Below, in pieces: positions 11,063 to 52,572 of a DNA stretch of 59,978 nucleotides. Position 1 is the stretch's first letter, and each line of letters starts with the position of its first letter. The stretch is from a bacterium (GTDB lineage Bacteria > Elusimicrobiota > Elusimicrobia > Elusimicrobiales > UBA9959), in assembly GCA_021811405.1 (NCBI GenBank), contig JAJZOZ010000002.1:1-59978 (forward strand), in the 5' to 3' direction. The translations under genes and the position numbers were made by a program. The notes beneath the pieces are model-generated. The model saw nothing but the letters and a program-made list of their open reading frames with translations. It ran no database searches and was not told the DNA's origin.

Positions 11063-11091
11063 AAGAACTCCGGCCGCGTCCCGGCGCGGCG

Positions 11092-13602: not shown

Positions 13603-13608
13603 ACTGGA

Positions 13609-22800: not shown

Positions 22801-25800
22801 GCGAGACGTTATTGGCCTTGTCGGTGGTCTTCACCGCGAAATAATAGGTCTTGCCCACGTCCAGGCCGTAGAGCACGCGCTGCTCCGGCTGGCCGGCCGC
22901 CGCCGGCGCCCAGGCCTGCGCGTAGGTGCTGGCCGCGCTGAACAGCGCGTCCGTGATTATCTGGAAGGTGGCCAGCTTGACCGTGTAGTAGCCGCCCGTA
23001 TTGTCCGTAACCGCGCCGTCGTCCCCGGGGGCCGTCCAGGACAGGCTCACCGAACCGCGCACCGGTCCGGGGGCCGCGGCCAGGCCCGTTATCGCGGCCG
23101 GCGGCTGCGTGTCCTTGAGTATCCGGAACGCGTCGACCAGCGTGGTGGTGCTGGAGGCGTTGTCCATGGCGCGCACGCTGATATAGTTGGTGCCGTGGCC
23201 CAGCAGCGAGAAGTTCAGCGCCCAGTTGGACGTGTAGATGGAGCCCAGAGTGCCGGAGGAAATGACGGTCCAGCCCAGCGTCTGGATGCCGGTCCGGTTG
23301 GGACCGCTGGAGGCCGAGTACTCCAGGCTGCTCAGGCCGGAGCCGCCGGTATCCGCGAAGTCCACGTCGTACACCGCGCCCTGCGCGGCGTTGCGCCAGG
23401 CCCCGTCGTAGCCGGCGGCCAGGTTATTGGTGACCGTGGGCGGCGCCGTGTCCTTCTTCACGTAGAAGGCGTCCGTGATGACGGGAGAGCTGTTGCCTGC
23501 GCTGTCGCGCGCCCTGACCGTCACGTAGCTGATCCCCTGCGGCAGCAGGTCCCACGTGCCCTGCGCGAACTGCCAGTCGGCGGTGTAGGAATCGGCGTTG
23601 ATCCCGGATACCTGGTCGGTCCAGTCCTGTACCAGCGCGCCGCCGCCGGCGGGCTGCGAGAGCACCCTGGTCTGCACCGAGGCCAGGTGCGAGCCGCCGG
23701 AATCCGTCGCGTCGATGTTATAGAAGACGCGGGAATTGCGCCAGGAATCGTCGCCGGCCTGGTTGTCTATCACGGTAGGCGGCACCGGGTCCTGCCTGTC
23801 GAACGCGATGCCGGCCGGCTCGTAGCTGAAGTCGGACACGGTGTTGGTATGCTGGAAGTTGGACGAGGCCGCGGTGCCGGCCCACGAAGTGCCGCCCCAC
23901 AGCGTGGTTTTCAGGTTCCCGGAGATATCCATCCCCAGCGCGGTGATCTTGTTGGTGTTCGGGTCCGGGTACAGCGCCAGCAGCCTGATGTCGTTGGCGA
24001 AGGTGGTATTGGTATTGGCGGTGGTCACCGACGGGCTGGCCGGCGTCCACGTGCCGCCCGACCAGGTTATGTAATCGAACTGCGTGTCGAAATTGCCGAT
24101 ATTGTCCACGGCGGCCGCCAGGAACCTGCCCGACTGGGATTCCCAGGCGGCGTCCGTGATGCGGCCGAGATTGGAGGACATGGAGGTGTCCGCCGCCGGG
24201 GAGGCGCTCCAGGCCTCGGTGCCGAGGGTGGACTGCCAGATGGAGACGTACCAGCCGGGCGACACGGTCATGATGCTGGCGCCGAGGCGGTTAGTGGTCG
24301 GGTCGGCAGCGACGCGCAGCCAGTAGACCGAAGTGGAGCCCACCGCGGGACCGGCCGGGGTGGCCGCGTCCCACGTGGACGAGGCGGAGCGCCAGATCTT
24401 GTAGGCCGTGGCGGTGCCGGCACCCCACAGCGCCACGGCGTTGCCGCTCTGGCTCTCCCAGCCGCCGTCGAAGCACTCCGTGGTCGCCATGGACGCCGCG
24501 GTGGTCAGGTTCTGCACCGAGGTCCAGGCGGAACCGGTCCAGACCGCGGCCGTGAGGCGGCCGTTGGCGTCCAGGGCCATCAGCAGCACCCTGTCGGTCC
24601 CCGGCATGGCCTTAAGCCGCACCCAGTTGACGTCGCCGGTCAGGCCGGTCAGCACGAGCGGCGCGGGCGCGCCGGCCCAGACGGAGGCGGTAGCGGACCA
24701 CACGGCGTAGGAGACGGTCCCGAGCGTACCGTTGTTATACACCGCCAGCATCCTGCCGGTCAGGCTTTCAGGGGCCAGGTCGAACTTGCGCGTGGCGGAG
24801 CCGCCGGGCGCCGGCGCGGGCGAAGGCGTGATGTCGCTCCACGCCGAGGCGAGCCCGTCCCACTTCAGCAGCTTCAGGCTGTTGTCGGAGGCCAGGAAAC
24901 CGCCTATCTTGGCGTTGGCGACTACCGGGACGGACTTCAGCACCGCCCAGCGCACCGTGGCGCCAGTGACCAGCGAACCGCCCTGCGCGCCCCAGATATC
25001 GGGCGTCCAGTTCCGGTAGACCGGGATATTGGACGCGCCGGAACCGTAAACTATCATGCCGGCGGCGGCCCCCGCCGGCGTGGCGCTGGAGACGGGAACG
25101 TTGGAGATGGGACCAACGTTGCCGGCCTCGTCCACGGCCTTTACGGCTATGGAATAAGTGGCGCCGGGAGTGAGGCCGTCCAGCACGCGGATCTCGGGCA
25201 GGCCGTAGGCCGCCGGCGACCAGGTCTGCGTATAGGTGGAGACCGCGGGCGAGGCGAAGTTGGCCCCGGTGATGAGGAACGGCGCGTAGCGCACGATGTA
25301 GGACGTCGCCGTACCGGCGTTGGCGACGCCCTTGACGCCCTCGCCCGGGGCCGTCCAGGTAAGGGATATCTGACCCTGGAAATCGGCCATTACGGCGGCC
25401 AGGTCGGCGATGGCCCCCGGCGGCGTGGTGTCCGTGCCTGCGTAGGAAGAGGTCGGGTTGCTCAGCGGCCCGGAGTTGCCGGCCTTGTCCACGGCCTCCA
25501 CGGCGAGATAGTAGGTGGCGCCGGCGGTGAAGCCGCTCAGGACCAGGCCTTCCGGCGAGCCGGCGGCCTTCGGGACCAGCGTGGAGACGTAGACGGCGGC
25601 CGCGTCGAAGTCGGCCTGGCCGGTGAAGGCGGAACCGGTCTTGTAGCGGATCATGTAATAGCTGGCGCTGCCGGTCAGGTCGCTGTCGCCGGGGGCGGTC
25701 CAGGACGCGTCGATGCCGCCCTCGCCGGCCTGGCCGGCGGAGGGAACGGCGGTCAGCGTGGTTATGGCCGACGGCGGCACCGTATCCTTGAGGATGTAGA

Positions 25801-28800
25801 ACACGTCCACCGAGGTGGAGGAGTGGCCGAGCGCGTCCCAGGCGGTCACGGTGATGTAGTTAGTGCCCGGCGCCAGCAGCGCCCAGTCCGCGCCGTAAAC
25901 GCCCCAGTTCTGGGTATAGGCCGGGAGGGGAGCCCCGGAGAATATCGGCGTGGAAGGCGCGACCTGCGCGCCCGTGCGCCCCGGCCCGGTCCAGGCCTCG
26001 TAGGCGGCCGTGGACACGCCTATGCCGGAGTCGGAGAAGTCCACGTCGAACACCGGGCCGGGGTTGGCCTTGTACCAGGTGGTGTCGCCGTCCTGCAGGT
26101 CGGCCACCGACGGGGGAGAGGTGTCCTTGCGCACGTAGAAGACGTCGGAGGCCGCGCCCATGTTCCCGGCCACGTCCCACGCCCGCACAGAAACGTAGTT
26201 GTAGCCTTCGGCCAGCGCCGCGAAGTCCACGGCCCAGTCCGAGGTGGAGAGCACGGTGCGGCTGGAGAAGAGCTGGGTCCAGCCCTTGACCTGCGCGCCG
26301 GTAAGGCCGGGGCCGGTCCAGGCGGAATAAGCCGCGCTGGAGAGCAGCGAGCCGTAGTCGGCGAAGTCCACGTCGTAGAGCGTGCCGGCGGCGGTGCGCC
26401 AGACGCCGTCGCCCGCCTGGTTGCCGGTGACGGCGGGCGGCGTGGTATCCTTCAGCACGCGGAACGCGTCGGTGATCGTGTAGGTGCTGCCGGCGCCGTC
26501 GAAGACCATCACCGAGACGTAGTTGGTGGCGCTGTCGTAGAGCGAGTTCCAGACGCCCAGCGACAGCGGCCAGTCCACCGGGTAGGAGGCCAGGCCGATG
26601 CCCGTTATGTTGTCGGTCCAGTCGAAGGCCTGTATGCCGGTGCCGCCGGGGCCGGTGCTGGCCTTAAGCTGGAACTTCGACACCAGCGAGCCGCCGGTGT
26701 CGGCGAAGTGGACGCTGTAGACGCCGCCGTTGGAATTGCGCCAGGAGAACTCCCCGCTCTGGAGGTTCTGCGCGGTGGGCGGCGTGGTGTCCTTCTTCAC
26801 GTAGAAGGCGTCCTTGAGCACGGCGGTGGAGCCCGCCACGTCCCACGCGCGCACCGAGACGTAGTTGGTCACGCCTTCCCTGAGCGCGGCGAAATCCAGC
26901 GGCCAGTCGGCCGAATACAGGGCGCCGGAGGGCCCGGCTATTGCGGTCCAGCCCTTCACGCCGCCGTCGGCGGAGGCCGGCGCGGTGCTGGCGCTGTACT
27001 CCAGGGCGGCCAGGCCGCTCATCGGGTCGGCGAAGTCCAGGTTGTAGGCCCTGCCGGCGCTGCGCCAGGCGGCGTCCCCGCCGGCCTCCCCGTTGACGAA
27101 GGCCGGCGGCGTGGTGTCCTTCAGGATGAAGAACGGCTGGAAGCCGAACGTGGCCGAGCTCTGCGCGTTGTCCCAGACGCGCACCGAGATGTAGCTGGTG
27201 CCTTCGCCCAGCAGGTCCCACAGGGTCTGCGGCAGCGGCCAGTCCGCCGTGTAGGAAGCGGCGTTAATGCCGGTGACGGCGTCGCTCCAGTCGAAGTACC
27301 ACGGTCCCAGCGTGCCGGCGTTGTAGGAGGCCCGGGCCTGGACTTTCGAGAGGTTCGAGCCGCCGGTATCGGCGAGATCGATGTTGTAGACGGTACCGGA
27401 GCTGTTGCGCCAGTAGGAGTCCCCGGCCTGGTTGTCCGCGAGCGAGGGCGGCGTGGTGTCCTTGAACACCCTGAAGGCGTCGGCCACGGTGGAGGTGTTG
27501 CCGGCCACGTCGTAGGCGCTCAGCGAGACGTAGTTGGTCGCGCCCTCGGCCAGCAGGCTGAAGGAAGAGGGCGGTATCGCGAAGTCCGTTGTATATGAGG
27601 CCGCGCCTATGCCCGTCTGTATGGGAGTCCAGTCGAAGAGGTACGGGCCGGCGCCCGGCACGGTGGAGACCCGCAGCTCGAAACCGGAGAGCAGGGAGCC
27701 GCCGGCGTCGGCGAAGTCCACGTTATACAGCGCGCCGGGGCCGTTGCGCCAGCTCAGGTCGCCGCCCGCGATATTATTGGTCACCTGCGGCGCCACGGTG
27801 TCCTTCTTCACGTAGAACACGTCGGCGAGCTCCGCGAAGAGGCCGGCCTGGTTGTAGGCCCGCACCGACACGTAGTTGGACTGCCCGCTGAGCATAGCGT
27901 CGAAGACGGGTGCGGGCAGGCCCCAGTCCGCCGTATACGTGTAGGCGTTGAGGCCGCTCACCGCTGCGGTCCAGCCGGAGGTGAAGGGCCCCAGGTTGCC
28001 GGGCAGCGTGGAGGAGCGCACCTCGAAACGGTCCAGCGGCGAGCCGCCCAGCGCCTGGGCGTCCACGTCGTAGAGCGCGTTGCCGGAGGAGCGCCAGACG
28101 TCGTCTCCGAGCTGGTTGTCGGTCAGCGTGACGGTCCGGGTGTCCTTCCTGATATGGAACGCGCCGGCCAGCGCGGCCGAGGAGCCGGCGGTGTCGAAGA
28201 CGCGCACGGAGATGTAGGAGGTGCCGGGGCCCAGCAGGTCCCACAGCTGGGAGGTGAGCTGCCAGTCGGCGGTATAGCTCTGCGCGTTGATGGCGGATAC
28301 GAGCGTGGTCCAGTCGAACAGCGGCGTGCCGGCGCCGGCCGCGTCGGTGGTGGCCTTCACCTGGAAGTGGTCCACGCCGGAGCCGCCGGCGTCGGCGAAG
28401 TCCACGTTGTAGACGCCGGTGTTGGCGCCGCGCCATACGTAGTCCCCGGCCTGGTTGTTCTGCACCGACGGCGGCGTGGTGTCCTTGCGCACCACGAAAA
28501 CGTCCGCCTGCTGGGCGGAATTGCCGGCGCCGTCGTAGACCCTCACGCTGACGTAATTCTGGCCCTCGCCCAGAACGGCGAAATCCGGGCCCCAGAGCTG
28601 GTTGTAATAGGTGGCGTTAATGGCCAGCACCCGGTCGGTCCAGTCCTGCGCCAGCGTGCCGGTGCCGGCCGGCCCCGACGTGATGCGCGTCTGGAAGCGG
28701 TCCAGCCTGGAGCCGCCCAGGTCGGAGAAGCCCACGTTGTAAACGGCGCCGGGGTCGGAGGCGTGCCAGAGGTTGTCGGCGGGCTGGTTGTTCAGTATGG

Positions 28801-31800
28801 CCGGGTTCGTCACGTCCTTGAGGACGTAGAAGACGTCCGCGAGCTCGCGGCTGCTGCCCAGCACGTCGAAGGCGCGCACGCTGACGTAGTTGGTGGCGCC
28901 CTCCGCCAGCGCGAAGAAGTCCACCCCCCAGTTCGCCGTGTACGAGGCGATCCCGGTGGACGAGAAGATGCCGGTCCAGTTCTTCAGGAGCGTGCCGCCG
29001 CCGGCCGGGGCGGAAGTGATGCGGTACTGCGCGGTGGCCAGGCCGGAGCCGAGGTCGGAGAAGTCGACGTCGTAGACGGCGCCGGAGGCGCGGCGCCACG
29101 TAGTGTCCCCCGCCTGGTTGTCCGCGATGGCGGGGGCGGAAGTGTCCTTTCTTATCACGAAGGCGTCCACGGCCTTCGAGGAGAAGTCCACCCGGTTGAA
29201 CGCCCGGACGCTGACGTAGTTCTGTCCCTCCCGGAGCGCGGCGAAGTCCACCGGCCAGGCCGCGCTGTAGCCGGCGGACCCGGAGGGCGTGGAGAAGATA
29301 TCGGTCCAGTCCTTCACGAGCGTCCCGCCTTCCGCCGGCGCCGCGGTGATCCTGTACTGGCCGGTGGTCAGGCCGGAGACCAGGTCCTGGAAGCTCACGT
29401 TGAACACGGCGCCCGGGTCCGAGAGGTACCACGGCGTGGGGGAGGCCTGGCCGTTGGTTATCGTGGGGCTGGAGGTGGCCGCCGTGAAGGAGCGGGTGGA
29501 GGACCAGGCCGCGTAGTTGCCTGCCGCGTCCCCGGCGCGGACCCGCCAGAAATACGCGCCGCCGGCCAGTCCGGAGACAGAGGCGGAAGCGGCGGCTGTC
29601 ACGGAACTGGCGCTGACCTGGGCGAACTCCTGCGAAGTGGAGAGCTGCAGCTCGTAGGCGGAGACCCCGGACCGCAGGTCCGAGGAGGCCGTCCAGGCGA
29701 AGGAAACCGCGCCCGTGGAGAACAGCGCCCCGTCGGCCGGGGACGACTGGCTCACGGCGGCGGGCGGCGTGGTGTCCTTGAGGACGTAGAAGGCGTCGGC
29801 GGAGGCCGAGCTCTGCGCCAGCTCGTCAAAGGCGCGCACGCTGACAAAGCCGGTGGTCCATTCCTGCAGCGCGGAGAAGTCGACGGGCCAGTCTGCCGTG
29901 TACGAGGCCGCCCCGGTGGGATAGGCGATGTCGGTCCAGTCCTTCAGCACCGCCCCGGCGCCGGCCGGCAGCGTCGTGATCCGGTACTGCGCCGTGGAGA
30001 GCCCCGAGAGGGGATCGAAGAAATCCACGTTGTAGGTCTTGCCGGCCGCGTTCTGCCACGCGGCGTCGCCCGCCTGGTTCAGGCCGAGGGACGGCGGCAC
30101 GGTGTCTTTCAGCACGTAGAAAGCGTTGCCCAGGGTGGAAGAACTGGGCAGCAGGTCGAAGACCGCCAGCGAGACGTAATTCCTGCCCGGCGCCAGCGCG
30201 TCGAACACGGCCTGGGGCAGGGACCAGTCCGCGGTATAGACCGTGGAGCCTATGTTATAGGCCGCGCTGGTCCACGCCACCAGGTAGGAGGGCGCCGCGG
30301 CGGAGGTGGCGGCCGTCACCTGGAAGTAATCCAGGTTGAAGCCGGACTCCGCCTGGAAGTCCACGTTGTAAAGCCCCGTATTGGCCGCGCGCCAGGCGTT
30401 ATCCCCCGCCTGGCCGTTGATTATCAGCGGGCCGGAACCCTCCTTGTAGACGCTGAAGACGTCGTTATAATACGAAACCCCTCCGGCGTTGTCGTAGACG
30501 CGCGCGCTGACGTAGGAAACGGCCAGGTTGGGCAGCGCCATATAATTGACCGGCCAGTCCGCGAGGTAGTCGGCGGCGTTGATGCCGGCGGCTATGTCGG
30601 TCCAGGTCACCACCTCGCCCCCGGTGCGCCCGGGCTGCGTCCAGACGGCGTACTGCGCCTTCGAGAGCAGCGAGCCGCCGGTATCGTGGAAGTCCACGTT
30701 CATCGCGTTCACGTCGGCCTGGCTCCGGGCCAGGGCTATGTCGGCCTGGTTATCCGAGGCCGTGGGCGGCGTGGTGTCCTTCCTGACGTAGAAAACGTCC
30801 GCCAGCAGCGAGGACTGCGCGAGCCTGTCGTAGGCGCGCACCGTGACGTAGCTGGCGCCTTCCGGCAGCAGGCTCCAGGAGGCGGCGGAAAGGCCCCAGT
30901 TGGCGCTGTAGGTGGAGACCGCCAGGCCGCTGGCGACGTCCGTCCAGTCGGCCAGCAGGGTGCCGCCCTGCGCCGGCTGCGAGGTGATCCGGTACTGTAT
31001 CGTGGCCACGCCGGAATAGAGGTCCAGGAAATCCACGTCGTAAACGGCCCCGGGGTTGGCGGCGCGCCAGACGTCGTCCCCGGCCTGGTTGTCCAGCATG
31101 GCCGGGGCGGAAGTGTCCTTCAGCACGTTGAAGACGTCGGAGCGGGTGGCGGTGGAGCCGGCCGCGTCCCAGGCCCGCGCGGAGATATAGTTGGTCCCGG
31201 CGGCCAGCAGGGAGAAGTTCACGCTCCACGGGCCCGGATAGGCCAGCCGCGGCGTGCCGGAGGAAATGACTGTCCACGGGACGGAATTGGAGCCGGTCTG
31301 GCCGGGTCCCGTCCAGGCGGAGTACTGCATGGTGTCCAGGCCAGTCATGTCGTCGGAGAAAGGCACGTTGTATACCGCGCCCGGGTCCGAATTGCGCCAG
31401 TTCGTCTCTCCGGGCTGGCTGTCGGTGACCACGGGAGCGACAGTGTCCGCCAGCACCCTGTAATAGGCGCTGTAGCCGGAATAGTTGCCGGCGTTGTCCC
31501 TGGCCCTGGCCTGCCAGTACCAGGTGGCCCCGGAAGGCAGCGCCGCGGCCTGCTGGGACGCGGCGGGCGCGGCCGAATAGGCCACGGGCGAGAAGGAGGC
31601 CGAGGTGGCCGCGCGCAGCTCGTAGCCGGCTATGCCGGAGGAGCCGTCGGAGGAATCCGTCCAGTCCAGCAGCGGGGAAAGGGTAGCGCGAGGGGCGAGG
31701 TCGGCGGGCGAAACGGCCGCGGGAGCGGAAGGCGGAGTGGTATCCTTCATGACGTAGAAGGCGTCGTCGAGCTCGGCGGAGTTGCCGGCGTTGTCGTAGA

Positions 31801-34800
31801 CGCGCACCGACACCATGCCGGGGCCTTCCGGCAGGGCGGTGAACGTGGAGGCGGGCAGGGCCCAGTCCGCGGTATAGGAATTGGAGTTGATGGAGGCGGC
31901 CTGGGGGTACCAGTCCGCGACCAGGGTACCGGTAAGGCCGGGGCCCGTGGTCACCTTCACCTCGAAGCGCGAGAGCCCGGAGCCGCCCGCGTCGGCGAAG
32001 TCCACGTTGTAGACGGTCCCCGATGAGGAGCGCCAGGCGGCGTCGCCGAGCTGGTTGTTGGCTACCGACGGGGCGGTCACGTCCTTCCTGACGTAGAAGA
32101 CGTCGCTGACGGCGGTAGTGGCGCCGGCCACGTCCCAGACCCTCACGGAAACGTAGTTGGTAACGCCCTCGGCGAGCGCGGCGAAGTCCACCGCCCAGTC
32201 GGCCGTATAGGAAGGCGCGTTGATGCCGGAGGCGATATAGGTCCAGTCCTTCACGAGCGTGCCGCCCTGGCCGGGGGCCGAGGTTACCTTGTACTGCGCG
32301 GCCGACAGGCCGGAGGCGCCGGAGTCCTCGAAGTCCACGTCGTAGAGGGTGCCGGGGGCGTTGCGCCAGACGTCGTCGCCCGCCTGGTTGTCCAGTATCC
32401 TGGGAGCGGCGGTGGACTTGCGGACGTAGAACGCGTCGGACAGCGCGGCGGAGAGGCCGGCGCCGTCATAGACCCGCACGGACAGGTAGTTGAGCCCGCT
32501 GGCCAGCGAATCGAATACGGCCTGCGGCAGCGTCCAGCCGCCCGGGTAGGAGCCGGCCGCCAGGCCCGAAGCCACGGTGGTCCAGTCGGCGGTGATCGTG
32601 CCGGTCTGGGCGGGACCGGTGGTCGCCTTCACCTGGAAGTAGGACAGCCTGGAGCCGCCGGTGTCGGCGAAACTGACGGCATAGGAGCCCGAATTGACGG
32701 GGCGCCAGACGTCGTCCCCGGCCTGCGAGTCGGTTATGGAAGGCGGCGTGGTGTCCTTGCGCACGTAGAAGACGTCGCTGAGGGAAGCCGAGTTGCCGGC
32801 GTTGTCCCAGACCCGCGCGGAGATGTAGGAGGTGCCCTCCGGCAGCAGCAGCCAGGTGGAGATGCCGAGGTCGAAATCCTGCGTGTAGGAGGCCGAGTTG
32901 ATGGCCGCCGACCTGTCGAACCAGTCCGAGAGCACCGTGCCGGTCTGGTTGGGGCCGGAGGTGATCTTCAGCTGGAACTTCGACAGCAGCGAGGCGCCGG
33001 TGTCCTGGAAGTCCACGTTGAACAGCGCGCCGGGAGCGGCCCGCCAGACGTCGTCGCCGGGCTGGTTGTCCACTATGGCGGGCGAGTAAGCGTCCTTCTT
33101 GACGTAGAACACGTCCTGGGCGGTGACGGTGGAGCCGGCGGCGTCCCAGACCCTCACGGACACGTAATTGGTGCCGTCGCCCAGCAGGGAGAAGTCGACG
33201 CCCCAGGTGGAGGAATAGGAATCCGAGCCCAGCGGCGTGGAGGTTATCACGGTCCACGGGATATGGTTGACGCCGGTGCGGCCGGGGCCGGACCAGGCGG
33301 AGTATTCCAGCGAGTCTATGTGAGAGCCGCCGGCATCGGCGAAGGAGACGTTATAGAGCGTTCCGCCGGCGGAGCGCCAGGCGTCGTCGCCGGCCTGCGC
33401 GTCGGCCACCGCGGGCGGCGCCGTGTCCACCCGCACGGAGAACGTGGAACCGTAGGCGCCGTAGTTCCCGGCGTTGTCGCGCGCCCTGGCGCGCCAGTAG
33501 AACAGCCCGGAAGGCAGGCTGGCCGGGTACTGGGAACCCGCCGTCGCCGCGCTGGCGTAGTTCACGGCGAAGTCCTGGGAAGTGGCCACGTAGACCTCGT
33601 AGCCGGAGATCCCGGAGCCGGCGTCAGCGGCGTCCGTCCAGTCCAGCAGCGGCGAGGCGCTGTTGGTCACCTTGCCGTCGGCGGGAGAGACCCCCGCCAC
33701 CGCGGAAGGCGGAGAGGTGTCCTTGCGCACGTAGAAGGCGTCGGTCAGCGTGGAGGAATTCCCGGCGTTGTCCCAGGCCCGCGCGGAGATATAGGAGGTG
33801 CCCTCCGGCAGCAGCAGCCAGGTGGAGATGCCGAGGTCGAAATCCTGCGCGTAGGAGGCCGCGTTGACGGCGGTCGCGCGGTAGAACCAGTCCGAGAGCA
33901 CCGTGCCGGTCTGGTTGGGGCCGGACGTGATCTTCAGCTGGAACCCGGCCAGCTGGGAGCCGCCGGCGTCGGCGAAATCCACGTTGAACAGCGCGCCGGG
34001 AACCGCACGCCAGACGTCGTCGCCGGGCTGGTTGTCGGTGATGACGGGGGCGGAGACGTCCTTGCGGATATAGAACACGTCGTCCGAGGAGGCGGAGTTG
34101 CCCGCGCGGTCCGAAGATTGCACGGAAACGTAGCTGGTGCCGTTGGGCAGCAGGGCCCAGTTGGTCGGCGACAGCGCCCAGTCGGAGTTATAGGCGGGGG
34201 CGGCGATGCCGGAAGCTATGACGCCGCCCGAGAAGGGGACCAGCTGCGCGCCCGTGCGGCCTGGGCCGCTGTAAACGGCGTAGCTGACCGTGTCCAGCAG
34301 GGAGCCGCCGGCGTCGTTGAAATGGACGGCGTAGAGCGTGCCGGAGGCGTTGCGCCAGACGTCGTCCCCGGCCTGCGCGTCCACGGCGACGGGTGGCGCG
34401 GTGTCGACGTATACGGCGCGCGTGGAGGTATAGGCCGAGTAATTGGAGACCAGGTCCACGGCCCTGACGCGCCAGTAGTACATGCCGCTGGCCAGCGCCG
34501 CGGAGGTGGATCCGGAGACCGACGGCGCGGCGCTGTAGGCCGGCGCGGCGAAATCCGCGGAGGTGGCCACCTGCAGCTCGTAAGCGGCCACGCCGCTGGC
34601 CAGGTCCGAGGAATCCGTCCAGTCGAAGAAGACGGCCGGGTCCTTCAGGAACGCGCCGTCGGCCGGCAGCGAGAGCGCCGGCAGCGTGGGCGGAGTGGTG
34701 TCCTTCTTGACGTAGAAGGCGTCGGTTATCGGCGCCAGCGACGTGTTGTCCGAACCGTCGGTGGAGCGCACCGTGACGTAGTTGTAGCCCTCTTTCATCG

Positions 34801-37800: not shown

Positions 37801-40800
37801 AGGCCGGGGACGGGGAGATGTCGGTCCACGGCACCAGCCCGGCCCCCGCCATGCCGGTGGAGGTCCAGGCGCCGTACTGCGCCTTCAGCAGCCGGGAGCC
37901 GCCGGCGTCGGCGAAGTCCACGTTGTAGAGGCCGGAGTTGGAGGCGCGCCAGACGTCGTCGCCGGCCTGGTTGTCGGCGGAGGCGGGCGGCACGGTATCC
38001 TTCAGGACGTAGAAGGCGTCGGTGCTCACCGCCACGTTGCCGGCCAGGTCGTAGGCGCGCGCCGAGATGTAGGCGGTGACTCCGGAGGTCAGCGAGAGGA
38101 AGTCCACGCCCCAGCTCTGCGAATAGGAGGCGGCCGAGATGCCGGAGGCTATGTCCGTCCAGCCCTTGATATTGCCCGAAGCGCCGCCGGGGACGGAAGA
38201 AGCCGAGTACTGCACCCTGGAGAGCAGCGAGTAGGGGTCGTTGAAGCCGACGTTATAGACGGCGCCGGGGTCGGCCTGGCGCCAGACGTCGTCGCCGGCC
38301 TGGTTGTCGGCGAAAGCCGGGGCCTCGGTGTCCTTCTTCACGTAGAAAACGTCGTTGGCCGTGGTGGTGGTGCCCGCCTGGTTCCAGACGCGCACGCTTA
38401 CGTAGTTGAAGCTGGACTTGAGCGCGGCGAAATCCACCGCCCAGTCGGCCGAGTAGTTGGCCGCGTTGATGTTCTGCGCTATGTAGGTCCAGTCCTTCAG
38501 CACGGTCCCGCCCTGGGCCGGCGACGAGGTCGCCTTGTACTGCGCGGCGGAGAGCAGCGAGCCGCCGCCGCCGCTGAAGTCCACGTTATATAGCGTGCCG
38601 CCCGCGTTGCGCCAGACGGCGTCCCCCGTCTGGTTGTTCACCACGGAGGGCGGGGTGAGGTCCACCACCGTGGCGGCCTCGGGCGGAGTGTCGCTGGTGG
38701 GCGGGTCCGTCTCGTCCCTGTTGCCGGCCTTGTCGTAGACCACCAGCCTGAAGCCCGCGGTGCCGCCGGCCGGGGCCGTGAAGGCTATGGGCGAGGCCGA
38801 GAACGTCGTCCCGAACTGGGTCCAGGAATACGGCACCCCGGTGGCCATGGTGTAATACAGTTTGACGTACTGCACGTCGGAGGGCCCCGCGTCGGAAGCG
38901 GAATACGGAACGTTGAAGCCGAGCGCGCCCGAGAAGGCCGGCGGCGTCACGGTCCCCGACGGGGGCTGCGTATCCTTCAGGATATAGAAGACGTCGGCGT
39001 AGTCGGAGAAGGCGCCGGCGTTGTCATAAACGCGGGCCGAGATGTAGTTGGTACCCGGCAGCAGCAGGCTCCAGAGCGCCGGCGTCAGCTGCCAGTCGGA
39101 AGGATACGAAGCGGAGCCTATGCCGGTCAGGAGGTCCGTATAACCGAAGGCATGGGCGCCGGCCCCCGCCGGGGCGGAAGAGGCCTTCACCTGCACTTTC
39201 GAGAGCAGCGAGCCGCCTTCGTCGGCGAAATGCACCGCGTACGCCCCGGCGTTGGAATTGCGCCAGGCGGCGTCGCCGGACTGCAGGTCCGCGGCCGTGG
39301 GCGGAACGGTATCCTTGAGCACGTAGAAGGCGTCGGAAAGGGTGGTAGTGGAGGCGGCGCCGTCCGCCACGTCCACGGAAACATAGGCCGTCACGCCGCT
39401 CTGTATGGCGTTCCAGAGGGCCGCGGTGAGCGGCCAGGGCGTGGAATAGGAGGCGGCGTTGATGTTGGAGAGCACCGGCGTCCAGTCCGCTATGACGGCG
39501 CCGGTCTGGGCGGGACCCTCGGTGAGCTTCACGCGCGCCCCCTCCAGCAGCGAGCCGCCGGTATCGGCGAAGCGCACGTCGTAGACGGCCGTATTGGCCG
39601 CGCGCCAAACGCCGTCCCCGCCCTGGTAGTCGGCTATGGAGGGCGGCGTGGTGTCCTTCTTCACGTAGAAGACGTCGGAGATCTCGCGCGCGTTGCCCGC
39701 ATTGTCGTAGACCCGCACGGACACGTAGGACTGGCCTTCCGGCAGCGGCTGCCACAGGGACTCGGGCAGCGCCCACGGCGCGGAGTGCGAAGCCGAGCCT
39801 ATGCCGGAGAGGATATCGGTCCAGCCGGCTATCTGCGCGCCGGTCTGCGCCGGGCCGGACATCAGCAGCGTCTGGAACCTGGAGAGCAGCGAGCCGCCGG
39901 CGTCCGCGAAGGACACGCCGTATAGCGTCCCGGAAGAATTGCGCCAGAGATCGTCACCGGGCTGGTTGTCGGCTATGGCCGGCAGCGTGACGTCCTTGAA
40001 CACCTTGAAGACGTCGCTAGAAACGCTGGCCAGCCCCAGCCTGTCGTAGGCGCGCACCGAGATGTAGTTGGTCGTGTTCTCTGCCAGCGTGGAGAAGCTC
40101 ACCGACCAGTTGTCCGTGTAATAGGTCGGATAGCCGGTGAGGATATTGGCCGGCAGCCAGTCGCTCACCGGGTACCCGAGCGCCGGGGCGGTACTGACCC
40201 TGTATTCTATGGCGGAGAGGCCGGAAGCCCTGTCGAAGAAATCCACGTCGTAGAGCGTGCCGGGCGAGCCGCGCCAGGCGTAGTCGCCGGCCTGGTTGTC
40301 GGCTATGACCGGCGGCGTCGTATCCTTCAGCACGTAGAAGGCGTCCTGCGCGGCGGTCGCCAGGCCGCCGCGGTCGAACACGCGCACGCCGACGTAATTG
40401 GCCCCTTCGCGGGCGGCGGCGAAGTCCACGGCCCAGTTGGCCGAGTACAGCGGCGTGCCGGCGGGCGCGCCGAAGATGTCCGTCCAGTCCTTCAGCAGGG
40501 TCCCGGTGCCGCCGGGGCCGGAGTACAGGCGGTACTGCGCGGTCGTCGCGCCGGATCCCAGGTCGCCGAAGTCCACGTCGTAGACGGCGCCGGGGTCGGT
40601 CAGCCGCCAGGTATCGTCGCCCGGCTGGTTCACCGTGACATAGGGCGGCGCGGTGTCCTTCCAGACGCTGAAGGCGTTATAGGTGTCGGAGGACTGCAGC
40701 GCCGCGTCGAACACGCGCACCGAGATATAGGCCGTGACGCCGCTGTCCAGGGAATCCCAGATGGCCGCGGGCAGCGGCCAGTCCGAGGCGTAGTTCCCGC

Positions 40801-43800
40801 CGGAGATGTTCGCCGCGTCGGTCCAGTCCAGCAGGTACGGGGCGTAATTGCCGGTGTGGGTGGAGGCGCGCAGCTGGTAGCGCAGCAGGCCGGACTCCTG
40901 GCCCGGGTCGTGGAAGTCGACGTTGTAGAGGCGGCCGTTGGAGGACTGGTAATACGTGGCCCCGGCCTCCAGGCTGACGGCGTACGGCGGCGTGGTGTCC
41001 TTGCGCACGTAGAAGACGTCGTTGGCCGAAGCGGAGAGGCCCGCCTGGTTATAGGCCCGCACGGAGACGTAGCCCGTGGTCCAGCTCTGCAGCGCGGCGA
41101 AGTCCACCGGCCAGTTGGCCGTGTAGGAGGGCTGGCCGGCCGGGCTGGAAACTATGTCCGTCCAGTCCTTGAGCAGCAGCCCCGCCTGGGCGGGCAGGCC
41201 GGATATCCTGTACTGGGCGGTGGTCAGCAGCGAGCCCGGGTCGGCGAAGTCTATGTTATAGACCGTCCCGGCCGAGGCGCGCCAGATGTTGTCGCCGCCC
41301 TGCAGGTCGGTGATCACCGGCGGGCTGGTGTCCTTTCTGACGTAGAAGACGTCCTCCACGGTCATGCTGGTCGAGTTGACGTTCCAAAGCCGCACGGAGA
41401 TGTAGTTCGTGGTCTCCTTCAGCGAGTCGAAGAAAGGCTGCGGCAGGGACCAGTCGGTGTAATAGTAGGTGGCGTTTATGTCCAGCACCTTGGCCCAGTC
41501 CGCGCTGAGCTCGCCGGTGCGGCCGGGCTGCGTCCAGGCCTGCACCGAGAAGGAGCTGAGGTTCAGCGCGGCGTTGTTGCTGAAGAAGTCCACGTTGTAA
41601 GTCCCGTTATTGGCGGTGCGCCAGACGGCGTCGCCGGCCTGGTTGATGGCGAGCCCCATCGGGAAGCTGGAGCGGAAGAGCTTGAAGGCGTCCGCGTAGT
41701 CCGAGGTACCGCCGGCCAGGTCGGTCACGCGCAGCGAGAAATAATTGGTGGCCGGCAACTGGGCCAGGGAATAGAAGTCCGCCCCCCAGTTCTGCGTGTA
41801 ATACGTAGCTCCGGAGAGCGTGGCGATATTGGTCCAGTCCTTGACCAGAGCGCCGGTACCGCCGGGGCCTTCGGTCACGCGGTACTGCGGCGCGGCTATG
41901 CCCGAGCCGCCGGCGTCGAAGAAGTCCACGTCGAAGACGGCGCCAGGGTTGGCGAGGTAGGGACCGTAGCCGTCGGCCGGAGTGCTGACTATGACCATGT
42001 AGGGCGGCACTGTGTCCTTCAGCACGTGGAAGGCGTCGTTCACCTGCGCCGGATTGCCGGCGTTATCGTAGACGCGCACGCTGACGTAGCCGGTGGTACC
42101 GCTGGGTATGGCCGCGAAATCCACGGGCCAGTCCGTAGTGTAGGAGGAAAGGCCGCCGGGGGAGTAGACTATGCCGGTCCAGTCCTTGAGCACCGTGCCG
42201 CCCTGGGCCGGCAGCGAGGTTACGCGGTACTGCGCGGTGGTCAGGCCGGAGGTAAGGTCCCCGAAGTCCACGTTGTACAGGGTGCCACCCGTCCCGCGCC
42301 AGACGTCGTCCCCGGCCTGGTTGTCGGTGATGACCGGCGAGCCGTTGTCCTTCAGCACGCGGAAGGCGTCCTGCAGCGCGGCGGAATGGCCCAGCTGGTC
42401 GGTGACCGTGACGCTTATGTAATTGGTCCCCTGCGCCAGCAGGCTGAAGTCGACGCTCCAGGGAACGGAATAGGCCGCTCCCGAAACGCCGGGGATGGCC
42501 GTCAGCGGGACCGCGTTGACGCCGGTGAGTCCGGGCCCGGTCCAGGCTTCGTAGGCCGCCGAAGCGAGGCCGGCGCCGGCGTCGCCGAAGCCCACGGTGT
42601 AGGCGGTGCCGCCGAAGCGGCGCCAGGCGTCGTCTCCGGCCTGGCCGTTGGCTATAACGGGGGCGGAAGTGTCCTTAAGCACGTAGAAGGCGTCGGTAAG
42701 CGAGACAGTGGAGCCGGCGTGGTCGAACACCCGTACCGAGATATAGCTGGTGCCGGACGGCAGCAGGTTCCAGAAGGCGGAGGGCAGCTGCCAGTCGGCG
42801 GCATAGGAGGCCGCGTTGATGCCGGTCGCGGCGTCGGTCCAGTCGGCCGCCAGCGTCCCGGTCTGCCCCGGGCCGGTAGTCGCCTTCACCTGGAAGCCGG
42901 AGAGCAGCGAGCCTCCCTCGTCGGCGAAGTCCACGTTATAGAGGCCGGAGACGGCGCGCCAGGAGGAGTCACCGGGCTGGTTGTCCGCTATGGACGGCGG
43001 CGAGGTGTCCTTCAGGACGTAGAAGACGTCGTTGTTCGCCTGCTGGTTGCCTGCGTTGTCCGTGACGCGGGCTGAAACGTAGGAGATGCCGGCCGGCAGC
43101 GCGTCCCACTGCGCCTGCGCCAGCTTCCAGCCGGCGGGGTAGGAGGCCGAATTTATGGCGGACTGCTGCGCCGCCCAGTCCTGCACGAGCGTCCCCGTCA
43201 GGGCGGGGCCGGTCGTTATCCTCAGCTCGAAGCTCGAGAGCAGCGAGCCGCCGGCGTCCGCGAATCCCACGTCGTAGGCCGTGCCGGAGGAACTGCGCCA
43301 GGAATCGTCCCCGAACTGGTTGTCAGCGATGGTCGGCAGCGTCTTGTCCTTGCTGATATAGAAGGCGTCCGCGTAGGTGGAGGAATTGCCGGCGAGATCC
43401 GTGAACCGCAGCGAGACGTAGTTGGTGGCCGCGCCCTCGGCCAGGGAAGTGAAGTCCACGGGCCAGTCGGCGATATACGAGGCTGCGCCCAGCGGCGCGG
43501 TGACTATGGGGCTCCAGGTCTTGCGCTGCGTGCCCTTCTGCCCAGGCTCCGACCAGACCGAGTATTCTATCGCGTTCAGCAGCGAGCCGCCGGTGTCGTA
43601 GAAGTCCACGTTGTAGAGCTTGCCGGGGTCCTTCTGCCACTGGGCGTCGCCGCCGGCCATGCCGTCCTGGGCGGAGGGCGCGGTGGTGTCCTTCAGCACG
43701 TAGAAGACGTCGTCCAGGGAGGTGGTGGTGCCGGCCACGTCCCAGACCCGCACGGAGATGTAGTTATAGCCCTCGGCCAGGGCGGGCCAGGAGGAGGCGG

Positions 43801-46800
43801 AAACGCCCCACGGCGCGGCGTAGGAATTATCGTACGGCGTGCCCGAGGAGATGAAAGTCCAGTCCAGCCGCCTGGTACCGGTCTGGCCGGGGCCGGTCCA
43901 GGCCGTGTACTGTATGCTGTCTATTCCGGAGCCGCCGGTATCCGCGAAGGAGACGTTATAAACGCTGCCGGGGTTGGCGTTGCGCCAGGCGGCGTCGCCG
44001 GACTGGGAGTTGGTTATCGCCAGCGGCACGGTGTCCTTGAGCACGTAGAACAGGCTGTCCGCCGAGGCGGTGGAGTTGCCCACGTTGTCGTAGGCGCGCA
44101 CGCTGACGTAGGCGGTGGTGCCGCTGGGGATGGCGTTCCAGGCCGCGGCCGGCAGGGCCCACGGCGAGGAATAGGAGGAGGAGTTGATGCCGGAGGCGAT
44201 GGTGGTCCAGTCGTAGAGCGTGGTGCCGGTCTGCGAGGGCCCGGTGGTCAGCTTTACCTGGAAATAGGAGAGCAGCGAGCCGCCGGCGTCGTTGAAGAAG
44301 ACGCTGTAGAGGCCGCCGTTGGCGTTGCGCCACTTCGTATCCCCGGCCTGGGAGTCGTTTATCGTAGGGGTGGAGAGGTCCACCAGCAGCGAGCGGTAGG
44401 CGCTGAAGGCGGAATAGTTGCCGGCCGTGTCGCTGGAGGCAGCGCGCCAGTAATAGGTGCTGCCGGCCACCAGCGGCAGGGAGGCCGCGGAGACCGCCGG
44501 CTGGCTGGAGTACGAGATGGTGGTGAAATCGGTGGAGGTGGCCAGCTGCAGCAGGTAGTTGGTGACGCCGGAGCCGGAGCCGTCGGAAGAATCCCCCCAG
44601 TCGAAAGAGAGGGCCGCGCCGTTGGTCTTGTAGCCGTCGGCCGGGGTCAGGAGCGAAGGCACCGAGGGTGCGGTGGTGTCCTTGAGCACTTTGAAGGCGT
44701 CTGTCACCGTGGCCGTATTGCCGGCCACGTCGTAGAACTCCACCGTGATATAGTTGGTGCTGTCGCCGCCCAGCGAGGCGAAGGCGACCTGCCAGGGCGT
44801 AGTGTAGGAAGGGCCCGAGACCCCCGTGATGGCTACGGAGGAGACCTTGAGCGCCCCGTTCTGGCCGGGGCCGGTCCAGGCGCTGTAAATGGCGCCGTTC
44901 AGCCAGGACCCGGCGGAGTCGGCGAACCTGAAGTCGTAAGCCGTCCCGGCGGCCTTGCGCCAGGTCAGGTCCCCGCCGGCGACGTTGTTGGTATACGCGG
45001 GAGGCGTGGTGTCCTTGAGCACCCTGAAGGCGTCGGTCACCGTGGTGGTGTTGCCGGCTATGTCGTAGACCTCCACCGTTATGTAGTTGGTGGCGTCCCC
45101 GCCCAGTCCCGCGAAGTTCAGCGCCCAGTCCGCGGTATACGAAGCGCCGCCCACGCCGGCCAGCGCCGTGGTGGAGAAGAGCACCGCCCCGGCCCCGCCG
45201 GCAGCCGCGCGGGCCGCGTAGACGGCCCCGGCCAGTTTGGAATAAGGGTCGGCGAAGTCCACGTTGTAGTTCCGGCCGGCCTTGCGCCAGGTCAGGTCCC
45301 CGCCGGCCTCGCCGTTGGTCACTACCGGCGGCACGGTATCCTTGAAGACCTTGAAAGCGTCCGACAGCGTCGCCGTGTTGGTGGAGTAGTCTATGGCCCT
45401 TACCGAGATATAGTTGGTGGTCCAGCTCTGCAGGCTGGTCCAGAAGGCGGCGGGCAGGGCCCAGTCTGTGGTGTAATAGGTGGCATTTATCGTCAGCGGC
45501 AGGTCCACCCAGCCGCCGCCGAAGTCGGTGCCGGTCTGCGCGGGCCCGGAGGTGGCCCGCACCTGCAGCTTCGAGATCAGCGAGCCCCCGTCGTCGTTGA
45601 AGTCCACGTCGTAAAGGCCGCTGTTCGTATTGCGCCAGACCTGGTCGCCGGTGCCCATGTTGGAGGTTATGACCGGCGTCGAGAGGTCCACCCGGAAGGC
45701 GCGCGTGGAGGAATAGACGCCGGTGTTCCCGGCGTTGTCCAGCGACCGCACGCGCCAGTAATAGTAGTTCTGGGCCAGCGCTGCCGGCTGCGCCATCGAG
45801 GCCAGCGGGCTGGAGCTGTAGGTGACGGTCGCGAAGTCCGCGGAAGTGGCCACCTGCAGCTCGTAGTTCTTCAGGCCGGAGCCGTCTATGTCGGTCACGT
45901 CCTCCCAGTCCAGCAGCGGGGGGCTGGCGTTCAGGTTCACCCGGTCGACCGGGACTATGGCCGCCAGGGCCGGCGCCGGAGGGCTGGAATAGTCCACGCC
46001 GAAGTCCGGATTGCCGCCCTTGTTCACCCAGCGCCCGCGGCCGCCGTCCCCGAAACCCGCGGCCCGCCAATGATAGACGGTACCGGAGACCAGCCCCGAG
46101 ACCACCGCGTAGCTGGAGGCCGCCACGGTATTATAGTTGAAGACCGGGCCGGTGGAAAGGGCGCTCTCGTCGAAAGCCGCGGCGTTCGGCTTCACCTCCG
46201 CCACCAGCGCTATATTGTCCACGTTCATCGAGCTGGCCAGCACGCCCTCGAAGCGCAGCTCCCGCGCGTTGGTCCAGGCGCCCTGGGCGAGGGCCGCGCC
46301 GTTGGCCTTCTGCACGAGCGACTCCGGCAGCTTGGGGAAGGGCACGAAGCTGTAATTTATCGCCGCGCGGCCTCCCATCAGGCCGCGGGAAGTGCTGAGC
46401 GCGTAGTTGGCGGTGACCACGGCGGGGAAGGTACTGAACTGCACCAGGTTCTGGTAGAACTGGTTTACCGTGCAGTCCTCGGTGGTCGTGCGGTGAAAGG
46501 CGGTTTCCGGAGCGTTGCCGTTGAAATCCACCGTGGTATTGAAGTCCTGCGTGGTGCCGCTGTTGTTCAGGAAGTCGGTATAGGTATAGGCCTCGCGCAG
46601 CGTCTTGGTACCCTCCGTTTCCGGGTACCAGGCCCCGAATGGGAAAGTATCGCTGGGTACCGTGCCGTTGGTATCGTTGCCGGCCAGCACCTCGTAATCG
46701 TCCGTATGGGCCGCGCCGTTGGTATAATCGTACGTTATTATCAGTTCCATGCCGTGCGCGCCGGTGGCGCTGTTGGCCGCGTAGATGGTTGTTCCCACCT

Positions 46801-48052: not shown

Positions 48053-48063
48053 ACCCGTTAAAT

Positions 48064-48474
48064 TCAGTCCTCCGACGTTCCCTCGCGCGCGCGCCTTTCC
48101 TCTTCCCGCATCATCTCCACTATGTCCTGCACCGTAAGCCCCACCAGCCAGTGGTTGACCTCGGCGCGCAGGGTCTCGTACAGCTTGTTGGAAACCTGCT
48201 CCCGCTCCGCTTTCGGCGCCCCGTTGAAAGTGAAGGCCTCCATCAGCTGCCAGACGCTGATGCCGTCGAGGTCCTTGCGCAGGCGGTAACCTTTGCCCTT
48301 CTGGGACTCGACCATGCCGGCGTGCACCAGCGCCTGCAGCACCTTGTTGCAGTACGGCGCGGGCAGGCCCTGGAAGCGGGCAATATCGGCCACCTGGTTC
48401 CACTGCCCGCCGTTGTTCTGCCCCAGGTAATGCAGGCAGGACAGTCCGTAGGCTAAAGTGCGGTTCATCCTCAT
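48064..48474 (-). CDS. Rrf2-family transcriptional regulator (no Fe-S Cys triad)
   Basis: 136 aa. MRMNRTLAYGLSCLHYLGQ...IARFQGLPAPYCNKVLQALVHAGMVESQKGKGYRL is a typical Rrf2 winged helix. No three-Cys cluster-ligand motif is seen around residues 90-105. GGAG lies 7 nt upstream of ATG 48474. The stop is 11 nt upstream of the giant gene start. Confidence 0.9.
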   Translation of the reverse strand: MRMNRTLAYGLSCLHYLGQNNGGQWNQVADIARFQGLPAPYCNKVLQALVHAGMVESQKGKGYRLRKDLDGISVWQLMEAFTFNGAPKAEREQVSNKLYETLRAEVNHWLVGLTVQDIVEMMREEERRAREGTSED

Positions 48475-48540
48475 AAGAAAGCTCCGGCGCCTTACAAGCT
48501 GTATCGCCGCTACGCGGCTGTTTTATTCCAGCGACCAACA

Positions 48541-50179: not shown

Positions 50180-50452
50180 TCACGCGGTCTTTTTTAAGAG
50201 GCCGCAGTCTATCAATTCCTTTATAAAGTCCCGGGAGTCCGCGCGGGCCGCGTCCCGGCCCACCTCGAACTTCCCGGTAAGGGCCGCCACGATGCCGTCC
50301 TCGTCCTGGCCGGCCGCCAGGCACTCCCAGATGACGGCCGCCGTGCCGTTCAGCTCGTGCAGCCGGGCGGAGGCGGCATCCACTACGAACAGCTCCTCGC
50401 CCATGCGCCTGAAGGCCAGGTCCTTCCGCATATTTACCGCTTTGTCCGTCAT
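50180..50452 (-). CDS. PqqD-family peptide chaperone (RiPP recognition element)
   Basis: 90 aa with PqqD-like LFVVDAASARLHELNGTAAVIWECL. The start overlaps the kinase stop (ATGA). Confidence 0.85.
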   Translation of the reverse strand: MTDKAVNMRKDLAFRRMGEELFVVDAASARLHELNGTAAVIWECLAAGQDEDGIVAALTGKFEVGRDAARADSRDFIKELIDCGLLKKTA

Positions 50453-52499: not shown

Positions 52500-52572
52500 A
52501 TCATGTCCAAAGGCCCGCCTGTCAGGCGGTCCTTCCGGGAAATCCCCGTGCCGGTCGTCATGCTCCGGATGG

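Follow-up and report, generated by a model that had tools for sequence, protein, structure and literature searches.

Fifty copies of a predicted Ig-like unit, from an unnamed branch of a known superfamily, in a probable giant surface protein of an Elusimicrobiota bacterium

When much the same module is repeated about fifty times within a single bacterial gene, the questions that arise are what fold the module has, whether it belongs to a family that already has a name, and what so long an array might be for. The case considered here is a stretch of 59,978 nucleotides (the whole of which is called the window below) from a bacterium of the Elusimicrobiota (Elusimicrobia; Elusimicrobiales; UBA9959), namely positions 1 to 59,978 of contig JAJZOZ010000002.1 in GenBank assembly GCA_021811405.1. 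An original prediction, made from the sequence alone, placed about 50 copies of a module of ~112 residues at 23100-45690, possibly an undescribed repeat family; they lie in a giant gene on the minus strand. The answer reached below is that what is new is an unnamed subfamily, while the immunoglobulin-like (Ig-like) superfamily to which it belongs, and the stalk design of giant adhesins, are already known.

The number, size and extent of the copies can be settled directly. A profile iterated from one unit and searched over the giant open reading frame (ORF) finds exactly 50 full-length units of 108-116 residues (mean 112), with E-values between 5e-33 and 6e-52 per unit, at ORF residues 952-8476, i.e. 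window positions 23111-45685 on the minus strand; together these make up 5,612 of 9,401 residues, or 60% of the giant protein. Eleven further weak profile matches fall on domains of the fibronectin type III (FN3) kind and on one of two propeller inserts. The unit consensus, in which all of the originally listed motifs reappear, reads T.PP...DNQAGD..WR...G..YNVDF.D.GGS.L ... TGPG.TG....DWT ... SYTADW ... NYVSVRV.D.AGN ... DAFYV.KD, and the units follow one another head to tail through a four-residue T-x-P-P linker. The array is real, but it is not continuous, being broken by six FN3-like domains, one other Ig-like domain, two blocks of the form FN3-FN3-propeller, and further domains (Table 1).

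Within the array the units are well diverged, their mean pairwise identity being 43% at protein level and 57% at DNA level, and Tandem Repeats Finder detects no DNA-level array in the repeat region. The single recent duplicate that had been noticed is also recovered: the closest pair is formed by units 27 (residues 4828-4940) and 29 (residues 5150-5262), which are 80% identical as protein and 86% as DNA. Since the FN3-like domains and the units 26 and 28 flanking this pair are just 46-50% identical, the recent event must have concerned one unit (by duplication or gene conversion) rather than a three-domain block. Two subtypes can be told apart from the columns of the hidden Markov model (HMM): 28 units are longer by three residues, inserted behind the third conserved Trp (W.LP...W), while 22 lack this insertion (W.VDF), and the two are interspersed along the array with no strict period. 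The Gly-Gly of the D.GGS loop goes some way with the subtype, being present in 20 of the 28 long units and 7 of the 22 short ones; it is the Asp and Ser of this loop that are near-invariant, so that the proposed D.GGS motif holds for these two residues but, as a whole, for just 27 of the 50 units.

As to fold, an AlphaFold2 model calculated from the alignment of the 50 units is all-beta, with 7-8 strands (residues 5-8, 25-28, 35-43, 52-65, 85-95 and 100-111) and high scores in the predicted local distance difference test (pLDDT 95.9) and for predicted template modelling (pTM 0.88). When this single-unit model is compared with the PDB using Foldseek, the top matches are mostly of Ig or FN3 type and generic in character, with probabilities of 0.9-1.0, E-values of at least 2e-3 and TM-scores normalised to the query (TMq) of at most 0.56; they include the hexagonally packed intermediate (HPI) S-layer protein of Deinococcus (8cka, TMq 0.56), RbmA, SiiE, PKD domains, and sandwiches of carbohydrate-binding module (CBM), lytic polysaccharide monooxygenase (LPMO) and CopC type. 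At the level of superfamily, the model thus identifies the unit as an Ig-like (E-set) beta-sandwich; its modelled fold is ordinary rather than new, and no solved domain is close to it. Of the two possibilities offered originally, an Ig-like or a cadherin-like sandwich, it is therefore the former that stands: Pfam scans at E ≤ 1, whether of the two protein halves, of the 50 units or of 65 diverse units of the family taken from other proteins, bring up no cadherin family, and the unit linker, K-D-T-x-P-P, is unlike the DxNDN of cadherins.

The search for a named family produced many partial resemblances. In a Pfam scan of the 50 units singly nothing is significant, the best value being E 0.0038 for Big_3_3 in one unit, while scans of the two protein halves bring Big_13, Big_3_3, Glucodextran_B and HYR just above threshold as sums over short fragments, none of them significant and all of them lying on the last 40 or so residues of the unit. 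For Big_13 (PF19077) membership was judged by a domain-level match to the 102-position model, with a gathering score of 27 bits. Its whole-protein scores of 27.8 and 38.1 bits are summed fragments containing no significant stretch; 8 of the 50 units match, with a best E of 0.031, as do 15 of the 65 diverse units (best E 6e-4), none significantly over the whole unit, and the units accordingly do not qualify as Big_13 domains. Nor do they qualify as HYR domains (PF02494, 81 positions), for which the summed score is 23 bits, the best fragment spans model positions 54-74, no stretch is significant, and one of the 65 diverse units matches (E 0.028). Ig_Rha78A_N (PF25788) matches two of the 50 units, with a best E of 0.0071, and fn3 (PF00041) matches none, so that by gathering score the units qualify for neither family.

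Much the same picture is obtained elsewhere. The best single-unit match among NCBIfam models is to NF047446, of OmpL47 type, with 24.6 bits against a cut-off of 40 and with model positions 12-68 lying on unit positions 57-110; there are weak matches to it in 16 of the 50 units, and the sums for the two protein halves (44.9 and 64.4 bits) pass the cut-off solely by way of many partial matches, no stretch being significant. Ca_tandemer (NF033510) gives weak matches in six of the 50 units (best E 6.5e-4), which does not amount to membership by sequence. Against PDB sequence profiles, queries made from the 50 units and from the 65 diverse sequences yield nothing significant; the best meaningful match is to SiiE, through the motif G.Y.vSV.a.D.AGN, and its E-value of 0.37 is not significant. 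A profile match to a patatin (E 0.098) was regarded as spurious. The expectation that no named Pfam family covers the unit is therefore borne out by the 50 units and the 65 diverse members alike, and a confident match across the whole unit to a Big_x, Cadherin or HYR family, the outcome that had been named as speaking against novelty, was looked for and not found.

Where the resemblances do lie is nevertheless informative. With Big_13, and with Big_3_2, Big_3_3 and Glucodextran_B, the unit has in common its last two strands and the loop between them (G.NYVSVRV.D.AGN......V.KD-T.PP, about positions 50-102 of the Big_13 model); Big_13 likewise occurs in tandem arrays of very large surface proteins, but it leaves the N-terminal half of the unit (DNQAGD..WR...YNVDF.D..S.L..QY ... 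DW) uncovered. The 68-residue model NF047446, named after OmpL47 of Leptospira, similarly covers the C-terminal half of the 112-residue unit only. This half (G.NYVSVR..D.AGN...FYV.KD), which weakly resembles Big_13, the OmpL47-type model, Glucodextran_B, Big_3_3 and SiiE, bears the widespread F-G strand motif of bacterial Ig-like (BIg) and FN3 domains. Alignment of profiles with hhalign ties the unit more firmly to domains of the same protein: against its six FN3-like inserts, which are Pfam Ig_Rha78A_N members (62.3 bits), the 50 units align over their full length with a probability of 90% and an E-value of 1.5e-6, with D..(G)SG..Y of the B-C region and Y.V.VRA.D.AGN of the F-G region each falling on its counterpart, whereas against the canonical FN3 domains of the protein the probability is 28%. 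Compared with the Ig_Rha78A_N type of FN3-like domain, the unit is about 13 residues longer and has an extra segment around TGPGQTG...DWT. Taken together, the BIg/FN3 motif of the C-terminal half and the alignment to the FN3-like inserts lead to the view that the unit forms a subfamily, as yet without a name, of a superfamily already known; judged by profile comparison, it is an enlarged branch of the FN3/BIg superfamily that has diverged strongly and has no family model of its own. The idea of an undescribed repeat family can thus be kept in the sense that the family is unnamed, but not in the sense of an isolated novelty.

The family is not confined to this one gene. An exhaustive HMM search over 1.84 billion representative proteins (clustered at 50% identity) returns 658 representatives at E ≤ 1e-3 and 217 at E ≤ 1e-30, many of them of 2,000-7,800 residues and with up to 45 copies of the unit. 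The family appears to reside mainly in Elusimicrobiota. The ten homologues that were traced to a named source belong to Elusimicrobiota, Firestonebacteria and Margulisbacteria, together with a weaker relative from Acidimicrobiia, and are called either ‘hypothetical protein’ or after other domains that they contain (PQQ propeller, lamin tail, beta-helix); for short homologues the precomputed Pfam annotation is empty. The more distant relatives of the unit in Margulisbacteria and Acidimicrobiia gain in Big_13 score. Position by position, conservation over 787 units (taken from 154 proteins) is highest at P4, G12-D13, W16, Y24, V26-D27-F28, D30, S34, L36, W57, Y69 and W73 and, in the C-terminal part, N88-Y89, D96 (94%), F108, K112 (91%) and D113. 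An intramolecular isopeptide or ester cross-link through Lys112 was considered, and judged unlikely, because an FN3-type topology puts the point where strand G finishes and the point where strand A begins at opposite poles of the domain.

More can be learned from close relatives of the giant gene itself. Its N-terminal domain recovers 17 species-representative genomes at identities of 38-92%, of which 16 are titled Elusimicrobia or Endomicrobia and one (L017) ‘bacterium’, and in all 17 loci the unit array lies downstream of that domain. The orthologues, one of them from Firestonebacteria, have 2,200-7,000 residues and the same architecture, the main variable being the number of units (6 to 45). 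In a comparison with one relative at 71-73% identity (L002), the unit of the same index is the best match for each of the 24 comparable units, with identities of 61-85% as against 44-72% for the next best, and genomes further removed also retain most of the unit order. The ratio of non-synonymous to synonymous substitution (dN/dS) over the units is 0.17 against a second relative (L001) and 0.20 against L002, similar to that of the N-terminal domain. The array is ancient and under purifying selection, as had been supposed, and its units are individually maintained.

The gene that carries the array needs to be delimited with some care. The mechanical ORF call on the window gives a single minus-strand frame at 19844-48538, but the true start, from sequence comparison, is the ATG at 48049 and not the 5' end of this ORF: the translation after this ATG, MPKAAGYNGRAWRAALRPLLLLCAALCASPAAA/DTQIKTVEYNFGG, consists of a signal-peptide-like hydrophobic leader and a mature N-terminus common to the orthologues examined, and the gene of an Rrf2-family regulator occupies 48064-48474, for which two reasons the part of the ORF upstream of 48049 is taken to be an artefact. 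The Rrf2 gene had been concealed within this spurious 5' extension (48050-48538). The mature giant protein has a net charge of about -340, contains 7.4% Asp and 1.5% Glu, and has 6 Cys; on sequence grounds it is most likely a cell-surface protein exported by the Sec pathway. Within it, the N-terminal domain of ~650 residues has no match in Pfam, NCBIfam or PDB sequences, and neither a family nor a PDB match was obtained for the 310-residue region that precedes the C-terminal propeller.

The two propeller inserts are of particular interest for function. They have no Pfam match, but AlphaFold2 models the insert as a multi-bladed beta-propeller (pLDDT 86), which finds its best counterparts in the PDB in PLL and PHL, the seven-bladed lectins of Photorhabdus that bind fucose (Foldseek E 4e-11; TM-score normalised to the target, TMt, 0.70), and in the related BP39L; fungal lectins of AAL type come next. 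Five Trp are invariant across 14 sequences of the insert, and free-standing homologues of 530-730 residues occur in metagenomes. On the strength of the models, the two propellers may be described as lectin-like and as likely ligand-binding parts.

What, then, might the fifty units be for? The reading preferred here, with a probability of roughly 65%, is that they would form the long, stiff stalk of a giant surface adhesin that projects binding modules. Ig-like stalks are found in a number of giant bacterial adhesins, such as SiiE, RTX adhesins (e.g. MpIBP and LapA) and Bap/Embp. The design fits in several respects, combining an Ig-like array with T-x-P-P linkers, a signal peptide, an acidic, Cys-poor chain, lectin-like propellers and lamin-tail domains (LTDs), and a variable number of units; the stalk role itself is argued by analogy with SiiE, RTX adhesins, cadherins and titin-like proteins, and the adhesion function from the likeness in structure between propellers and lectins. 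Such a stalk would keep the ligand-binding parts apart from one another and at a distance from the cell, these being probably the two seven-bladed propellers, the two LTDs, the C-terminal PQQ-like propeller and the 650-residue N-terminal domain, so that the whole protein would be a giant glycan-binding adhesin or fibre. An Ig-like domain is ~4 nm long, from which 50 units would give about 200 nm, and more if the 13 other Ig or FN3 domains are included.

A refinement that deserves mention concerns calcium. A very acidic giant surface protein in which tens of Ig-like domains follow one another is likewise the setting of the BIg domains of SiiE (PDB 2yn3/2yn5), of Ca_tandemer RTX repeats and of the extracellular (EC) domains of cadherins; cadherins and SiiE place Ca2+ ligands in the linker and in the B-C and F-G loops, which is where the conserved Asp residues of the unit are found, and SiiE comes up whether one searches by fold or by profile. 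A candidate site could be made up of Asp27 and Asp30 (B-C loop) and Asp96 (F-G loop) together with Lys112-Asp113 in the linker of the preceding unit, all of which an FN3-type topology would bring to the domain junction. Given this placement of Asp and the excess of Asp over the protein as a whole, a unit junction stiffened by Ca2+ is plausible and possible, as a candidate site only. The likeness to known systems has its limits, since, unlike adhesins of RTX or SiiE type, the giant protein has no type I secretion signal or RTX region, and all of the matches concerned are non-significant. A much bolder version can be put forward tentatively, with the odds clearly against it: that the unit is a Ca2+-dependent Ig domain, ‘cadherin-like by convergence’, in which the inter-domain site of Asp27, Asp30, Asp96 and Lys-Asp stiffens a fibre of ~0.25 micrometre, conserved in at least 17 species-representative genomes of Elusimicrobiota, which with its two lectin-like propellers serves these mostly uncultured bacteria as the main attachment device to hosts, prey or particles. 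Such a fibre may be exported or anchored with the help of the adjacent genes for pseudopilins and for PorV-like and type IX secretion system (T9SS) C-terminal-domain proteins.

Several points weigh against the stalk reading or its refinements. The stalk role is an analogy, and a search of the literature on giant proteins in Elusimicrobia, surface proteins of E. minutum, OmpL47, and T9SS in Elusimicrobia turned up no title or abstract dealing with the unit. In the giant protein neither a sorting signal at the C-terminus nor a membrane anchor could be recognised, and no anchoring mechanism was identified; the propeller inserts are just 12-14% identical to the PLL and PHL lectins, the likeness being one of structure only. 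As regards calcium, the patchy occurrence of the Gly-Gly in the D.GGS loop speaks against a metal site, and motifs such as D..SG and D.AGN occur also in FN3-like domains that bind no metal. Lastly, three conserved Trp and several conserved Tyr per 112 residues are a higher number of aromatics than a plain spacer would call for, and some of them could form a binding surface.

This last point leads to an alternative, unlikely on balance, in which the units are not passive spacers at all but themselves bind carbohydrate or protein, weakly and multivalently, in the ‘Velcro’ manner of Embp. In its favour, the aromatics in question (W16, Y24, F28, W57, Y69, W73, Y89 and F108) are unusually well conserved, each being present in 77-91% of the 787 units, although they may simply be buried in the core, as is usual in Ig folds. 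The positional orthology between species suggests that units are not interchangeable. CBM-, LPMO- and CopC-type sandwiches are among the weak Foldseek matches, but the CBM matches have E > 0.01, and the protein already possesses dedicated lectin-like propellers and LTDs. OmpL47, after which the nearest NCBIfam model is named, binds host matrix components. One account (PMC2698987) describes it as surface-exposed in the outer membrane of Leptospira.

More improbable is that the protein is a structural component of the envelope or matrix, i.e. an S-layer-like sheet or a biofilm scaffold in which the units associate laterally with one another. Such a role would accord with the identity of the top Foldseek matches (the HPI S-layer protein of Deinococcus and RbmA, a biofilm scaffold of Vibrio), with conservation of the gene across the phylum, and with its location near genes for glycosyltransferase and outer-membrane proteins; those structural matches are, however, weak (E about 2e-3) and of a kind that Ig-like folds give generally, a single chain of 9,401 residues with terminal and internal propellers resembles a fibre rather than a lattice subunit, and a unit number that varies between orthologues as widely as this one does is typical of stalks. 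There is finally the more trivial idea that the array is an artefact of assembly or annotation, whether through collapsed or chimeric repeats or as a stop-free frame in GC-rich DNA, and it is true that the window is metagenome-like, with a GC content of 65-70% and many spurious long ORFs in other frames. Pfam domains, however, are found along the whole of this frame, collinear orthologues with unit-by-unit correspondence come from 17 independent genomes, dN/dS is 0.2, and the divergence of the units at DNA level makes mis-assembly by repeat collapse unlikely, so that this reading is effectively refuted. The stalk of a giant adhesin remains the preferred reading of the array.

The surroundings of the giant gene (Table 1) call for some comment. 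Upstream of it, on the same strand, lies a cluster that is conserved in many related loci and runs in the order GT2 glycosyltransferase, small ORF, 855-residue PilV-like protein, 168-residue pseudopilin, a pair of paralogues of 426-458 residues, a 267-residue protein resembling HprK-related kinases and ScmC, radical-SAM/SPASM enzyme, Rrf2 regulator and giant gene. The pseudopilin (GspG/GspJ-like) and the PilV-like protein, which is of unusual size, carry prepilin-type N-terminal methylation motifs. The adjacent paralogues of 458 and 426 residues, for which there is no Pfam or NCBIfam match, recur, as a pair too, in several of the related loci from Elusimicrobia. Shortly before the giant gene, the radical-SAM enzyme (whose best matches, all sub-threshold, are maturases of NirJ2, GeoRSP, PqqE and ScmE type) is kept at this place in 14 of the 17 related loci; together with the 267-residue protein, which is weakly similar to HprK-related kinase A and ScmC, it looks, from these similarities, like a cassette for the modification of a peptide or protein. 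On the downstream side, a gene of the same type as the 1,058-residue neighbour also follows the giant gene of one related locus (L016), and the occurrence of T9SS-type parts outside Bacteroidota, in an Elusimicrobia genome, was unexpected. Further to the left there is a housekeeping cluster (8685-12917). The RNase P RNA is the sole match obtained with Rfam over the window.

A broader comparison can be made with the giant proteins of Omnitrophota, which have 30,000-85,000 residues and contain HEAT, TPR, dockerin and enzyme domains, and upstream of whose genes a locus resembling a type II secretion system (T2SS) is found (West-Roberts et al. 2023, bioRxiv 10.1101/2023.11.21.568195). Like these, the present protein is giant, repeat-rich, probably extracellular, and from the Omnitrophota/Elusimicrobia radiation, and the pilin-like genes upstream of it recall the T2SS-like locus; unlike them, it has 9,401 residues and is built from Ig-like units, a unit that is not described in that study. 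The literature found names giant genes in Elusimicrobia just in passing, without this unit.

Table 1 Features of the window, from the 5' end of the giant gene to its 3' end, followed by neighbouring features. Positions are those of the window.
Feature	Position	Strand	Remarks
Giant gene	19844-48049	minus	9,401-residue precursor; stop at 19844-19846
Signal peptide and ~650-residue N-terminal domain	45983-48049 (domain 45983-47956)	minus	conserved 38-92% in 17 genomes
FN3-like insert a	45686-45982	minus	Ig_Rha78A_N type; Pfam
Units 1-3	44678-45685	minus	self-built profile
FN3-like insert	44378-44677	minus	Ig_Rha78A_N type
Units 4-19	38972-44377	minus	self-built profile
Single different Ig-like domain, 104 residues	38660-38971	minus	conserved in orthologues; no Pfam match
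Units 20-24	36986-38659	minus	self-built profile
Two canonical FN3 domains	36305-36985	minus	Pfam fn3
Beta-propeller insert 1, about 420 residues	35045-36304	minus	AlphaFold2 pLDDT 86; nearest PLL/PHL lectins
Unit 25	34700-35044	minus	self-built profile
FN3-like insert	34403-34699	minus	Ig_Rha78A_N type
Units 26-27	33719-34402	minus	self-built profile
Unit 27	33719-34057	minus	80% identical to unit 29
FN3-like insert	33425-33718	minus	Ig_Rha78A_N type
Units 28-32	31742-33424	minus	self-built profile
Unit 29	32753-33091	minus	80% identical to unit 27
FN3-like insert	31445-31741	minus	Ig_Rha78A_N type
Units 33-37	29774-31444	minus	self-built profile
FN3-like insert	29477-29773	minus	Ig_Rha78A_N type
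Units 38-48	25784-29476	minus	self-built profile
Two canonical FN3 domains	25079-25783	minus	Pfam fn3; second FN3-FN3-propeller block
Beta-propeller insert 2	23789-25078	minus	31% identical to insert 1
Units 49-50	23111-23788	minus	self-built profile
FN3 domain	22769-23110	minus	Pfam
Two lamin-tail domains	21899-22768	minus	Pfam LTD, 90.4 bits against a cut-off of 34.3
310-residue region	20969-21898	minus	conserved 29-45% in 11 orthologues
C-terminal PQQ-like beta-propeller	19847-20968	minus	Beta-prop_ACSF4 E 1.3e-28, below model cut-off
855-residue PilV-like protein	54371-56938	minus	
168-residue GspG/GspJ-like pseudopilin	53857-54363	minus	
426-residue paralogue	52573-53853	minus	
458-residue paralogue	51234-52610	minus	
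267-residue protein	50449-51252	minus	
Radical-SAM/SPASM enzyme	48667-49701	minus	
Rrf2-family transcriptional regulator, 136 residues	48064-48474	minus	Pfam Rrf2, 67.4 bits; directly upstream of giant gene
Downstream gene, 1,058 residues	16648-19824	minus	PQQ/BamB-like propeller, FN3, T9SS type-A C-terminal sorting domain
PorV/PorQ-family outer-membrane protein	15097-16632	minus	NF033709, 164.8 bits against a cut-off of 90
ABC-2 transporter pair	13576-15089		
HPr kinase	11955-12917		
RapZ	11092-12630 (ORF)		domain in C-terminal part
Mannose-type phosphotransferase system IID component	8685-9782		
RNase P RNA, bacterial class A	1627-1995	minus	Rfam RF00010, 187.5 bits, full length

As to what all this means, it should be said that the general picture, of giant bacterial adhesins built from tandem Ig-like domains, is unchanged, and that the result would not surprise a specialist. 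The more practical consequence is one of annotation: as there is no Pfam or NCBIfam model for the unit, about 60% of the giant protein and its many orthologues are effectively unannotated, and a model built from the 787 units would annotate a family that, although rare (about 650 representatives at 50% identity), is worth a Pfam entry. For the organisms themselves, a giant surface protein with lectin-like heads across Elusimicrobia provides a concrete candidate for adhesion in these largely uncultured bacteria.

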